From: a virus
Lineage: Duplodnaviria > Heunggongvirae > Uroviricota > Caudoviricetes
Direction: 5' to 3' (one strand)
Length of the DNA stretch: 9,660 nt
IMG/VR virus record: IMGVR_UViG_2529292829_000015
Position numbers and translations under genes: made by a program. A model generated the notes under the pieces. It did no database searches, was not told where the DNA came from, and saw only the letters and a list, made by a program, of their open reading frames with translations. Numbering within the stretch: the stretch's first letter is position 1; every line of letters starts with the position of its first letter. Of the stretch, positions 1,009-9,660 are shown piece by piece.

Positions 1009-1083
1009 GTCCTCTTAGTTAAATGGATATAACGAGCCCCTCCTAAGGGCTAATTGCAGGTTCGATTCCTGCAGGGGACACCA
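1009..1083 (+). tRNA. argW: tRNA-Arg (anticodon CCU)
   Basis: 75-nt cloverleaf folded by hand. Acceptor stem GTCCTCT/AGGGGAC (one G-U pair), D-stem GTTA/TAAC, anticodon stem AGCCC/GGGCT with loop CTCCTAA (anticodon CCT), T-stem GCAGG/CCTGC with loop TTCGATT, discriminator A plus encoded CCA. Confidence 0.93.
1054..1069 (+). repeat. 16-bp direct repeat, copy 1 (TTGCAGGTTCGATTCC), inside the argW T-arm; candidate att identity segment
   Basis: Exact 16/16 identity with 9425-9440. The flanks diverge immediately on both sides. Confidence 0.8.
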
Positions 1084-1178
1084 TTTGTCAGTTCGCTCCC
1101 ATCCGTACCAGTCCGCAAAATCCCCTGAATATCAAGCCTTCCGTAGATTCACAGTTCGTCATGGTTCGCGTCAGATCG

Positions 1179-1208
1179 TTGACAGCCGCACTCCATGACG
1201 GGTAAAAA
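1179..1208 (+). promoter_or_regulatory. Candidate intS promoter within the attL arm (TTGACA at 1179-1184, 18-nt spacer, TAAAAA at 1203-1208)
   Basis: Perfect -35 hexamer and a 4/6 -10 match located about 35 nt upstream of the proposed int start at 1245. The 1084-1244 region also carries reiterated GTTCGC/GTTCGT motifs (1091, 1155, 1164) that could be recombinase or RDF arm sites. Confidence 0.3.
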
Positions 1209-1244
1209 GTGGATAAAATGATTTTACCCACCGGATTTTTACCC

Positions 1245-2402
1245 ATGCTCACCGTTAAGCAGATTGAAGCAGCAAAGCCGAAAGAAAAACCATACCGCCT
1301 TCTCGATGGTAATGGCCTGTACCTTTATGTCCCTGTGTCAGGGAAAAAGGTATGGCAGCTTCGCTACAAGATTGACGGTAAGGAGAAAATCCTGACCGTC
1401 GGAAAATACCCGCTTATGACTTTGCAAGAGGCAAGGGATAAAGCATGGACTGCAAGGAAAGACATCTCGGTTGGCATCGATCCGGTAAAGGCGAAAAAGG
1501 CTTCGTCTAACAACAATTCCTTTAGCGTCATTTACAAGGAATGGTACGAGCACAAGAAGCAAGTCTGGTCAGTAGGCTATGCAAATGAACTTGCAAAAAT
1601 GTTTGATGACGACATTTTACCTATCATCGGCGGCCTTGAAATTCAGGATATTGAGCCGATGCAACTGCTGGAAGTAATCCGCAGATTTGAAGATCGAGGT
1701 GCAATGGAGCGAGCCAACAAAGCCCGCAGAAGATGCGGCGAGGTTTTCCGTTACGCTATTGTCACTGGTAGGGCTAAATATAACCCGGCACCTGACCTTG
1801 CTGACGCCATGAAAGGATACCGCAAGAAGAACTTCCCGTTTCTTCCAGCAGACCAGATCCCGGCATTCAACAAAGCACTTGCAACATTTTCAGGAAGTAT
1901 CGTATCGCTCATTGCGACCAAAGTTTTACGCTACACAGCCCTAAGAACGAAAGAGCTTCGCTCCATGCTATGGAAGAACGTCGATTTTGAAAACAGGATT
2001 ATCACCATCGACGCCAGTGTGATGAAGGGCCGCAAGATTCATGTAGTACCGATGTCAGACCAGGTGGTTGAACTTCTCACTACGCTAAGCTCAATCACCA
2101 AACCAGTATCAGAGTTTGTTTTTTCCGGGCGCAACGATAAGAAAAAGCCAATCTGCGAGAACGCGGTATTACTTGTGATCAAACAAATCGGCTATGAGGG
2201 TCTGGAAAGCGGTCACGGATTCAGGCATGAATTCAGTACGATTATGAACGAGCACGAATGGCCTGCTGATGCTATTGAAGTGCAACTGGCACATGCCAAT
2301 GGCGGATCTGTGCGTGGAATTTACAACCATGCTCAGTATCTCGATAAGCGCAGGGAGATGATGCAGTGGTGGGCGGACTGGGTTGATGAAAAGCCGGAGT
2401 GA
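1245..2402 (+). CDS. intS: Prophage tyrosine integrase (IntS-like; P4/Sf6-type tRNA-site integrase)
   Basis: ORF ends TGA at 2400-2402. The C-terminal region carries the tyrosine-recombinase signature (HGFRHEF box with H-x-x-R, then VRGIYNHAQYL with the candidate catalytic Tyr). Start chosen at ATG 1245 (MLTVKQ..., 385 aa) to fit the candidate promoter and the IntS length as I recall it. In-frame alternatives are ATG 1218 and GTG 1209. Confidence 0.88.
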   Translation: MLTVKQIEAAKPKEKPYRLLDGNGLYLYVPVSGKKVWQLRYKIDGKEKILTVGKYPLMTLQEARDKAWTARKDISVGIDPVKAKKASSNNNSFSVIYKEWYEHKKQVWSVGYANELAKMFDDDILPIIGGLEIQDIEPMQLLEVIRRFEDRGAMERANKARRRCGEVFRYAIVTGRAKYNPAPDLADAMKGYRKKNFPFLPADQIPAFNKALATFSGSIVSLIATKVLRYTALRTKELRSMLWKNVDFENRIITIDASVMKGRKIHVVPMSDQVVELLTTLSSITKPVSEFVFSGRNDKKKPICENAVLLVIKQIGYEGLESGHGFRHEFSTIMNEHEWPADAIEVQLAHANGGSVRGIYNHAQYLDKRREMMQWWADWVDEKPE

Positions 2403-2555
2403 TCCACCTTAACCACTATCGAAGAGCACAAAGCCTTGCAATCCAGTGCAAATCTTTGTGTGCATCAGTTTTGTCTCATCAACCACAGCAAGTCATCGAT
2501 CGATTGAGACTTGGATGATAGACTTCATGCCTTTGATTATTAGCTGATAGAAGAA

Positions 2556-2918
2556 ATGTTAAAGCTATTTGCAAAGTACACTTCGATTGGTGTGCTGAAC
2601 ACACTTATACACTGGGTGGTTTTTGGTGTATGTATCTATGCCGCACATACCAATCAGGCTCTGGCAAACTTCGCAGGTTTTGTTGTGGCTGTGAGTTTTA
2701 GCTTCTTCGCGAATGCAAAATTCACATTCAAAGCATCAACTACAACGATGCGCTACATGTTATATGTCGGGTTCATGGGAACACTGAGTGCAACTGTTGG
2801 ATGGGCTGCTGATAGATGTTCACTTCCTCCAATTGTCACTCTCGTCACCTTCTCCGCCATCAGCCTGGTGTGCGGTTTCGTCTATTCAAAGTTCATTGTC
2901 TTTAGGGATGCGAAATGA
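2556..2918 (+). CDS. gtrA: GtrA-family bactoprenol-linked glucose flippase
   Basis: 120-aa small hydrophobic protein. Its stop overlaps the gtrB start in an ATGA junction (2915-2918). First gene of a canonical gtrABC arrangement (yfdG position). Confidence 0.88.
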
Positions 2919-3832
2919 AGATATCTCTTGTAGTTCCTGTCTTCAATGAAGAAGAAGCGATACCAATTTTTTATAAAACGGTACGTGAATTCGAAGAGTT
3001 GAAGCCATATGAAGTGGAAATTGTTTTCATAAATGACGGCAGTAAAGACGCTACGGAGTCAATTATTAATGCTCTGGCTGTTTCAGATCCTCTAGTGGTT
3101 CCGCTGTCATTTACACGAAACTTTGGTAAAGAACCAGCATTGTTTGCAGGGTTAGATCATGCAACAGGAGATGCCGTAATTCCAATTGATGTTGACCTGC
3201 AAGACCCAATTGAGGTTATTCCTCATCTTATTGAAAAGTGGAAGGCAGGCACTGATATGGTGCTGGCCAAACGTTCAGACCGCTCTACAGATGGACGTCT
3301 GAAGCGAAAAACTGCTGAATGGTTCTATAAGCTCCACAATAAAATAAGCAATCCAAAGATTGAAGAGAATGTTGGTGATTTCCGGTTAATGAGCCGTGAA
3401 GTTGTCGAAAATATTAAGCTTATGCCAGAGCGAAACCTTTTTATGAAAGGAGTACTGAGTTGGGTAGGAGGTTCGACCGACATCGTCGAATATTCACGCG
3501 CAGAGCGTGTTGCTGGTAATTCAAAATTCAATGGATGGAAATTGTGGAATCTTGCTCTCGAGGGAATAACATCGTTCTCCACATTTCCTCTTCGTATATG
3601 GACATATATAGGATTATTCATTGCTGGATGCTCATTTATATATGGTGCATGGATGATATTTGACACTCTGGTATTTGGTAATGCAGTTAGAGGTTACCCG
3701 TCGATTATAGTATCAATCCTCTTTTTAGGAGGAGTGCAACTTATAGGTATCGGTGTTTTGGGTGAATATATTGGAAGAATATACATAGAAACAAAACATA
3801 GACCTAGATTTTTATTGAAGGATAAGAAATGA
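2915..3832 (+). CDS. gtrB: GtrB bactoprenol glucosyltransferase (GT2 family)
   Basis: 305 aa. N-terminal GT2 features ([22 protein letters not shown] DxD-type motif) and C-terminal transmembrane helices. ATGA overlap with gtrC at 3829-3832. Confidence 0.9.
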
Positions 3833-9336: not shown

Positions 9337-9339
9337 CCC

Positions 9340-9370
9340 GCCTCACACTCGATGAGGCATTTTCATTTAT
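9340..9370 (+). terminator. Rho-independent terminator candidate (GCCTCA-7 nt loop-TGAGGC, then ATTTTCATTTAT)
   Basis: 6-bp perfect stem at 9340-9345 / 9353-9358, 4 nt after the stop of the 114-aa gene, followed by a U-rich tract. Confidence 0.5.
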
Positions 9371-9392
9371 CAAGATATCCAGACCTACCATC

Positions 9393-9417
9393 GCCGCATC
9401 AATGCGGTTTTTTTATT
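9393..9417 (+). terminator. Second terminator-like hairpin (CCGCA-TCAA-TGCGG) followed by a T7 run
   Basis: 5-bp stem (6 with a G-U pair) at 9394-9398 / 9403-9407, then TTTTTTT ATT. Lies immediately upstream of the 16-bp tRNA-derived repeat. Confidence 0.4.
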
Positions 9418-9424
9418 ACCTGAT

Positions 9425-9440
9425 TTGCAGGTTCGATTCC
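9425..9440 (+). repeat. 16-bp direct repeat, copy 2 (TTGCAGGTTCGATTCC); candidate att-core remnant or recombination junction
   Basis: Exact copy of argW positions 46-61 (window 1054-1069). Not part of a foldable tRNA here, and the adjacent sequence does not continue into the tRNA 3' end. Confidence 0.8.
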
Positions 9441-9459
9441 CTATTCGGAGATAGCACTC

Positions 9460-9660
9460 ATGCAACACGAACTACAGCCTGATTCCCTGGTTGATTTGAA
9501 ATTCATCATGGCCGATACTGGCTTCGGTAAAACCTTCATCTATGACCGGATTAAGTCCGGCGACCTGCCAAAAGCCAAAGTTATCCACGGGCGAGCAAGA
9601 TGGTTATATCGTGACCATTGTGAATTCAAGAATAAGCTTTTAAGCCGCGTCAATGGGTAA
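9460..9660 (+). CDS. torI: AlpA/Xis-family winged-helix recombination directionality factor (TorI-like excisionase)
   Basis: 66-aa ORF, ATG 9460 with GGAG 9 nt upstream, TAA at 9658-9660 (the window ends at the stop). The pattern L...DTGFGKTFIYDRIKSGDLPKAKV...RARWLYRD fits AlpA-family HTH proteins. Size and argW/intS context fit KplE1 TorI; the gene symbol rests on context and recollection and is not verified. Confidence 0.7.
   Translation: MQHELQPDSLVDLKFIMADTGFGKTFIYDRIKSGDLPKAKVIHGRARWLYRDHCEFKNKLLSRVNG

Follow-up and report, generated by a model that had tools for sequence, protein, structure and literature searches.

The recombination module of the Escherichia coli K-12 prophage CPS-53 (KplE1) is common to the phages HK620, Sf6 and CUS-3 (PMC2951348, PMC3509656, PMC8787464), and in modules of this type int and xis flank the prophage at opposite ends (PMC2951348, PMC8787464). 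The attL binding sites and the autoregulation of intS have been characterised in K-12 KplE1 (PMC2951348), and a reference cited in PMC8787464 already documents the argW-dsdC island as highly variable. Here we analysed a stretch of 9,660 bases (IMG/VR record IMGVR_UViG_2529292829_000015; called the window below), which is E. coli chromosome with the gene order yfdC-argW...torI. The window carries a defective (cryptic) P22-like prophage remnant in the 3' end of argW. This remnant very probably derives from a P22-like phage through one deletion of approximately 31 kb, with the functions of the remaining genes predicted from their sequences.

Full-length matches to the window were found in three complete genomes, those of 027_SK3 and ABW_S38 (wastewater, Basel) and of KFu015 (river water). 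An exact comparison with 027_SK3 showed four mismatches (99.96% identity). In 027_SK3 dsdC directly follows torI, with its start 184 bp past the end of the window, and is itself followed by dsdXA, emrYK and evgAS; the same torI-dsdC arrangement was seen in all three independent genomes. As dsdC comes right after torI, no structural genes lie downstream of the window. An exact 16-bp direct repeat forms the att core, with one copy in the window and a second 74–89 bp past its end, and is identical to the annotated Sf6 attP core and to the att cores of K-12 CPS-53:

1069-1084: attL core, CTGCAGGGGACACCAT, overlapping the 3' end of argW
9734-9749 (window-equivalent, beyond the window): attR core, CTGCAGGGGACACCAT, starting after a 73-bp gap from the end of torI

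From core to core the element measures 8,665 bp. Strain ABW_A33 has an unoccupied yfdC-argW-dsdC site with a single copy of the core, and its flanks are identical to those of the element at 1000/1000 and 998/1000 bases, which indicates a clean insertion of 8,665 bp. The initial annotation had drawn the island from 1054 to 9660; the true left edge is instead the core inside the argW 3' end, and the right edge is the attR core beyond the window.

The window stops at the torI stop codon and on its own could not decide whether it is the end of a complete prophage or an assembly chimera, so both the flank beyond 9660 and the assemblies were inspected. No P22-like structural set follows in 027_SK3, where dsdC is reached instead, and the att cores bracket the 8,665 bp at a site whose empty form has matching flanks. 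Three independent complete assemblies share the locus and the window adds a fourth independent sequence with four single-nucleotide differences, which rules out a chimera. After these checks nothing was left in support of either idea, and we give them a negligible chance of being right.

Among open reading frames (ORFs) of at least 50 aa searched against Pfam and PHROG, no capsid, portal, terminase, lysis or replication gene was found in the window. Of the parts of a complete P22-like prophage, the head-binding tailspike is present. Between attL and attR the P22-type coat, scaffold, portal, terminase, gp4/gp10/gp26, gp7 and gp20 are absent, with only a gp16-type fragment found, and the immC repressor, replication and lysis modules are also absent from the element, which is thus a remnant and not a complete P22-like member. 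Much of this had been anticipated in the initial annotation. It had named a cryptic argW prophage retaining integration, gtrABC, tailspike and Mnt functions, and the element indeed closes at attR beside dsdC; the integrase, gtrABC cassette, tailspike, Mnt-like repressor and excisionase-like gene that it listed are all full length by domains and alignments; the structural, lysis and replication genes that it described as lacking are indeed absent; and its ejection-protein fragment comprises the 374 C-terminal codons of a 767-aa gp16-type protein.

The scar of the deletion lies at the start of this fragment:

7755-8879, minus strand: pseudogene, C-terminal 374 codons of a gp16-type DNA-transfer (ejection) protein, identified through the full-length ORF in the strain 97.3 prophage (locus L002) and phrog_770
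8879-8880: deletion junction with a 2-bp TA microhomology, where identity breaks against both parents
8881-8919, plus strand: last ~40 bp of an ASCH-domain early-left gene, matching the 3' end of the ASCH coding sequence in locus L007 and HF4s_0022

The left parent, the 97.3 prophage, is identical to the element up to 8880 and the right parents, the HB37 prophage and phage HF4s, are identical to it from 8879, leaving the 2-bp TA microhomology at the join. In HF4s coordinates the missing sequence amounts to ~31 kb. The joined sequence occurs in 3 of 5,426 genomes, exactly those carrying the whole element, whilst each half alone is common. The comparison with both parents points to a single illegitimate deletion, with one endpoint inside the gp16-type gene and the other in the 3' end of the ASCH gene. 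Across the junction, the minus-strand ORF at 7755-9047 is chimeric (430 codons), with 56 codons running antisense through the early-left stub in frame with the C-terminal half of gp16. A native in-frame methionine (MPAGAK) stands right at the junction.

The fragment gave no BLASTP match to Sf6 gp13 or HF4s gp14, because it is a different allele. Its gp16-type identity was established through the intact ORF of 767 aa in strain 97.3 (L002 25439-27742), by the match of that ORF to phrog_770 (DNA transfer protein, E = 2.4e-149) and by synteny, since it lies downstream of gp7 and gp20 homologs. In the existing annotation of 97.3 the gene at the gp16 position is called a partial pseudogene and is partly left unannotated; it is in fact a single uninterrupted ORF of 767 codons.

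A truncated gp16 gene and an ASCH stub are the scars of a deletion and not a designed architecture. This bears on another way of reading the element, as a phage satellite or mobilisable island with P22-like phages as its helpers, which could account for int, xis and the att sites being kept together with a virion component gene. No packaging signal and no small-terminase, replication or helper-interference genes were found, and no PADLOC or PHROG match suggested them, so that we think a satellite highly improbable.

We next set out the gene order expected of the ancestor. In HF4s and Sf6 the early-left genes are followed by xis, attP, int and the conversion gene or genes, and then by the convergent tailspike and gp16; opening this order at attP produces exactly the gene order of the window. 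The ancestor of the element would have been a temperate P22-like phage (Lederbergvirus) of approximately 39–40 kb and of the Sf6/HK620/HF4s type. In such phages attP lies between xis and int, and the circle would be opened there on integration, giving the undeleted order attL-intS-gtrABC-(tailspike)-mnt-(gp16, gp20, gp7, head genes, lysis, nin, replication, immC, early left)-torI-attR. The ~31-kb illegitimate deletion would then have placed the 3' end of the early-left ASCH gene directly next to codon ~394 of the gp16-type gene, taking with it every virion, lysis, replication and immunity-C gene.

Complete prophages of this order exist at argW. That of strain BUCT2930 reads argW-intS-gtrABC-tailspike-mnt-gp16-gp20-gp7-heads, E. 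coli W and UTAK-23 carry complete argW prophages in which an acyltransferase replaces gtrABC, and strain 98224 has another complete-looking one without mnt. The initial annotation had proposed a mosaic or a deletion derivative. The second half of that proposal stands, given the junction at 8879/8880, but a mosaic of CPS-53 and P22 is not needed, because the KplE1-type module is native to P22-like phages and complete argW prophages have the same order. By these comparisons the CPS-53-like backbone and the P22-like segment are two parts of one phage type, and K-12 CPS-53 itself is a sibling remnant with a different middle.

When the window was compared with the complete 97.3 prophage, only 4 of 6,289 positions differed between 2592 and 8880 (99.94% identity), and 3850-6900 was 100% identical. 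With this near-identity to a complete prophage the deletion looks recent.

The KplE1-type recombination module is present in full:

1009-1083, plus strand: argW, tRNA-Arg(CCU), the integration target (ARAGORN; Rfam tRNA, 63.4 bits)
1085-1244, plus strand: attL arm region overlapping the intS promoter, by its likeness to K-12 attL-PintS
1245-2402, plus strand: intS, full-length tyrosine integrase of 385 aa (Pfam PF13356, PF22022, PF00589)
9460-9660, plus strand: torI, full-length recombination directionality factor (excisionase) of 66 aa (K-12 TorI, PDB 1z4h)

The insertion is in the argW 3' end with the core duplicated at both ends, intS lies by attL and torI by attR, as in KplE1, Sf6 and HK620. 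Gene intS starts 161 bp past the core and reads inward from attL, whilst torI sits at the opposite end by attR. The three Pfam domains of IntS are Arm-DNA-bind_3, Phage_int_M and Phage_integrase (arm-binding, central and catalytic); the protein differs from K-12 IntS at 5/385 residues and is 98% identical to the Sf6 and HF4s integrases. The IntS changes A95V, T114N, A294S, L380V and V384P are lineage-specific. TorI shares 65 of its 66 residues with K-12 TorI and likewise with Sf6 and HF4s Xis (A64V), and matches PDB 1z4h with E = 2.5e-42. The attL-PintS region is identical to that of K-12 KplE1 at 174 of 179 bases (97.2%), suggesting that the attL binding sites and autoregulation may work in this element as they do in K-12. 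Together, IntS and TorI with attL and attR can presumably still excise the element, as in K-12 KplE1.

The four positions at which the window differs from 027_SK3 are 1528, 1707 and 2382 in intS and 3620 in gtrB. Three of the four thus fall in intS (binomial P = 0.006), where each of them changes the encoded residue (codons 95, 155 and 380). TorI also matched the PADLOC model mad1 of the MADS system (E = 2.7e-12); this most likely reflects shared ancestry of excisionase/AlpA-type helix-turn-helix proteins at the family level and not a defence function. PADLOC gave no other defence match on the window, and the tRNA was the sole Rfam match in the window at gathering thresholds.

Downstream of intS is a gtrABC cassette, followed by an inverted repeat:

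2556-2918, plus strand: gtrA (yfdG homolog), 120 aa (PF04138)
2915-3832, plus strand: gtrB (yfdH homolog), GT2 bactoprenol glucosyltransferase of 305 aa (PF00535)
3829-5280, plus strand: gtrC, serotype-specific GT-C membrane glycosyltransferase of 483 aa, by its GT-C fold and synteny
5296-5332: perfect 12-bp inverted repeat with a 13-nt loop, read from the sequence between the convergent gtrC and tailspike genes

GtrA and GtrB are encoded by overlapping genes with a polytopic GtrC directly downstream, the arrangement of a GtrABC cassette; the stop codon of gtrA overlaps the start of gtrB, and the gtrC start likewise overlaps the gtrB stop. GtrA shares 96.7% identity with K-12 YfdG and 98.3% with HF4s GtrA, and GtrB shares 89.8% with K-12 YfdH. 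The gtrC gene has a GC content of 32–36% and its product has ~10 hydrophobic segments and a GT-C fold. GtrC had no Pfam or NCBIfam match, and a search of 5.8 billion proteins returned only 11 relatives, none of them named. In both cases with a readable upstream context gtrA-gtrB stood directly upstream of the relative. One of these is in the yfdC-int locus of Salmonella enterica, an equivalent site, after gtrAB. The second is in an unrelated prophage with a Mu-F-like protein and a Phage_portal_3 portal, where it lies opposite a beta-helix tail protein. These relatives (L008 6001-7452; L010 6001-7434) share 41–49% identity with GtrC of the window, which by these searches appears to be a member of a very small unannotated family.

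Salmonella gtr operons carry a four-GATC pattern. This pattern is absent from the 153-bp leader of gtrA, where GATC occurs only twice (2401 and 2498), and no Dam/OxyR signature of phase variation was seen there; GATC is under-represented in the window. The inverted repeat occupies most of the 56-bp gap that separates the stop codons of gtrC and the tailspike gene, and is probably a bidirectional terminator shared by the two.

The tailspike gene and mnt diverge from a short intergenic region:

5337-7355, minus strand: tailspike, 672 aa (Pfam Head_binding, Beta_helix, Peptidase_S74)
7356-7476: divergent mnt/tailspike control region, 121 bp, intergenic
7477-7737, plus strand: mnt, ribbon-helix-helix repressor of 86 aa (PF11423 and PF03869, Arc)

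The tailspike gene starts with an ATG preceded by a GGAG ribosome-binding site. Its head-binding domain is of the P22 type (PF09008, E = 1.1e-64) and its C-terminus is a Peptidase_S74 intramolecular chaperone. Matches in the PDB were to Sf6 gp14 (residues 17–239), to the N-terminal domain of the P22 tailspike, and to endosialidase and gp12 chaperone domains. When the receptor-binding part was compared with 50,697 phage records nothing exceeded ~33% identity and only the C-terminal chaperone part was matched; lacking a relative for this part, the substrate of the tailspike is not assignable by homology.

Mnt matched P22 Mnt (PDB 1mnt) with E = 1.6e-19 over residues 6–79. In P22 immI, mnt diverges from an arc-ant operon whose transcription continues into the tailspike gene; in the window mnt is divergent from the tailspike gene, and arc and ant are absent. 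Sf101 and the complete prophages of BUCT2930 and W likewise carry, as their native state, mnt with neither arc nor ant, suggesting that this arrangement is native to the sub-lineage and is not a product of decay. The P22 O-mnt sequence was not present in the control region, and in its place there was a different conserved palindrome, ATGCAACCA-N5-TGATTGCAT, at 7381-7403. Weak promoter-like sites were seen on both strands of the region. Aligning the window with six other loci (L014–L019), 140 of the 145 columns of 7341-7485 were invariant across the seven, although in these loci intS differs by ~3–15% and the specificity parts of gtrC and the tailspike are unrelated. The palindrome arms were constant in all seven, with variation confined to the 5-nt spacer. 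We infer from this conservation that the palindrome is a candidate Mnt operator. The tailspike would have lost its late promoter, so that transcription would come only from the control region shared with mnt, and Mnt would probably repress it.

Two further features complete the window:

1-933: yfdC, host gene preceding the island
8992-9336, plus strand: early-left gene of 114 aa, function unassigned (phrog_1229, E = 2e-51)

The 114-aa gene gave no Pfam or PADLOC match. It stands upstream of xis, its usual position, and the same gene precedes xis-int in the HB37 prophage. The early-left remainder also holds two terminator-like hairpins.

The products GtrA, GtrB and GtrC would be predicted to add a glucose branch to the O-antigen of the host, and this modification would shield the host from phages with a cognate tailspike. 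The block from gtrC to the tailspike was found in 4 of 5,426 complete genomes at megablast sensitivity. In 027_SK3 the wzx and wzy genes are annotated as the O62/O68 family, and this wzx/wzy cluster was present in eight genomes, which include all four carriers of the block; apart from 97.3, the carriers are not phylogenetically independent. An association of block and cluster is expected where the tailspike, the modifying enzyme and the host O-antigen match. O62 strains are reported to be derived from O68, with O68 synthesis silenced (PMC7685785), and O62 has been linked to an insertion sequence (IS) event which silences it (PMC7685785). A copy of IS1 is located between wcaM and galF in 027_SK3 (L013 39720-40417), just upstream of the O62/O68-type cluster. 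With an IS1 beside the O-antigen cluster and this reported IS-linked silencing, the expressed serogroup of the host is uncertain.

Several observations weigh against our reading of the element, in its history or in its remaining functions. Identity to the 97.3 prophage falls to ~88% left of 2592 (2314-2591). This break indicates at least one recombination event, and a single complete argW ancestor is assumed here and not proven. In intS, the lineage-specific changes relative to nine other alleles comprise four nonsynonymous codons against six synonymous sites, whilst the remaining differences from K-12 comprise one nonsynonymous and 38 synonymous (Fisher P = 0.004, on small numbers); the excess may mean relaxed constraint, with an integrase possibly already decaying. 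The O62 and O68 clusters are indistinguishable here, and silencing of O68 in O62 strains would deprive GtrC of its presumed substrate. More generally, gene content was read from the sequence, and the expression and activity of all genes are inferred.

The break at ~2592 has a counterpart in the 97.3 prophage itself, which is at the ybhB-ybhC lambda site and nevertheless carries, beside gtrA, an 89-bp stub of the intS 3' end (L002 20006-20089). Taken together, the identity jump and the stub suggest that the block from gtr to the tailspike was exchanged between integration backbones at least once. A resident CPS-53-like argW remnant could accordingly have gained gtrABC-tailspike-mnt-gp16' by homologous recombination with an O68-specific P22-like phage, in which case argW would never have received a complete phage with precisely this gene set. 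The step from ~88% to 99.94% identity fits such a capture, as does the 97.3 prophage, which has a different integrase at att-lambda and yet an intS 3' fragment, showing that modules move between backbones. However, complete intS-gtrABC-tailspike-mnt-gp16 prophages exist at argW and a capture is not required; the breakpoint at 2592 could equally stem from the lineage of the 97.3 phage; and the illegitimate junction demands a deletion under either history. We regard capture as unlikely, and deletion in situ of a complete argW prophage as the simplest history.

Other small remnants of ~8–17 kb were found at argW (L014–L017) in strains CFSAN061772, E3, 23CRST024 and PK5074. They are independent and their deletion junctions differ, involving a fragment of a coat gene, the immC region, a fusion of gp16 and N with an IS3-family element, and IS-associated sequence. 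Each of the four has kept intS, gtrAB and torI along with variant forms of gtrC and of the tailspike gene; the mnt gene is complete except in E3, where the junction shortens it. More widely, roughly a third of records in an evenly spaced sample of 60 hits had intS at argW. The P22-type head-binding sequence was present in 1,144 of the 5,426 genomes.

That intS-gtrABC-tailspike-mnt and torI have been kept in four or more further small remnants, each independent and with a junction of its own, that the mnt-tailspike control region is near-invariant across seven loci, and that the head-binding domain is conserved in so many genomes might together suggest a domesticated cassette. In this case a Mnt-controlled orphan tailspike would be selectively kept with gtrABC, as a host-range reservoir or for supply in trans to P22-like phages. 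We consider this improbable. The other remnants were found through their resemblance to the query, which is an ascertainment bias; the tailspike of the PK5074 remnant is interrupted by IS1; all three tailspike-bearing loci taken from the evenly spaced ranking run into complete-looking P22-type virion gene sets; and K-12 CPS-53 retained gtrABC without a tailspike. The tailspike of the window is also 100% identical to that of the complete 97.3 prophage, with the same RefSeq protein accession, which leaves no time for it to have decayed and nothing on which constraint could be tested.

The broader claim, that argW P22-like prophages were repeatedly and independently reduced (at least five junctions) to intS-gtrABC-tailspike-mnt...torI with the tailspike kept by selection, is in our view very doubtful. 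If it were true, the orphan tailspike might supply host-range modules to incoming P22-like phages, either by recombination or, through its conserved head-binding domain, in trans. We did not adopt the idea of convergent tailspike retention, owing to the ascertainment bias and the young deletion. The idea in the initial annotation that the tailspike was retained as beneficial to the host likewise found no support, as the block is near-identical to that of a complete prophage and simply young. Most likely the tailspike is intact through the youth of the deletion and not through selection.

The element offers a clean and datable single-step prophage deletion, with an exact junction and both parental sequences available. 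It also brings together a GtrC family and a tailspike specificity, neither of them characterised and both tied to O62/O68-type hosts, and this pair could guide work on O-antigen modification and phage receptors in the O62/O68 serogroup. Otherwise it adds a further product of decay to a locus known for its variability and for KplE1-type and P22-like prophages.

Compared with named relatives, the backbone is like that of CPS-53/KplE1, as the initial annotation had recognised. Both elements are defective, occupy the same argW-dsdC site and share its 16-bp core; identity is 97–99% for intS, torI and the attL region, gtrA and gtrB have the homologs yfdG and yfdH, and nucleotide identity is 94.1% over 1-3796 of the window and 92.5% over 9340-9660. 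The middle is unrelated, in CPS-53 (10.2 kb) comprising yfdI (a different GtrC), the tail-fibre-assembly remnants tfaS and yfdK, and yfdL-yfdT, whereas the element of the window (8.7 kb) has the new GtrC, the P22-type tailspike, mnt and the gp16 fragment.

The P22-like character of the segment running from the tailspike through mnt to the ejection protein, also noted initially, is borne out by the 97.3 prophage and by Shigella phage Sf101. The 97.3 prophage (E. coli O68:H12, NZ_CP061758) differs from gtrA to the gp16 3' half at just the four positions given above, its GtrA, GtrB, GtrC and tailspike have the same protein accessions, and its host has the same O62/O68 wzx/wzy cluster. It is, however, located at ybhB-ybhC (att-lambda) with another integrase and only the 89-bp intS stub, and has a full virion, lysis and nin set. 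Sf101 is 97.3% identical in nucleotides over 7009-8879, which covers the head-binding domain, mnt and the gp16 allele, and also has no arc or ant; it differs in being a complete phage with another tailspike receptor-binding part and other conversion genes.

HF4s, Sf6, HK620, CUS-3 and Kapi1 (Lederbergvirus, argW) share a xis-attP-int module that is 95–97% identical. Phages of the HF4s/Sf6 type likewise place conversion genes between int and a convergent tailspike, and HF4s also has gtrABC. In contrast to the element they are complete. Between gp16 and the tailspike gene Sf6 and HF4s lack mnt, and they are unrelated to the window in their gp16 allele, in GtrC (or Oac) and in the receptor-binding domains of the tailspike. 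The argW prophages of BUCT2930 and W show the order argW-intS-(gtrABC or acyltransferase)-tailspike-mnt-gp16-gp20-gp7, which is the predicted undeleted form of the element; they differ in being full length and in having different GtrC and tailspike specificity modules.

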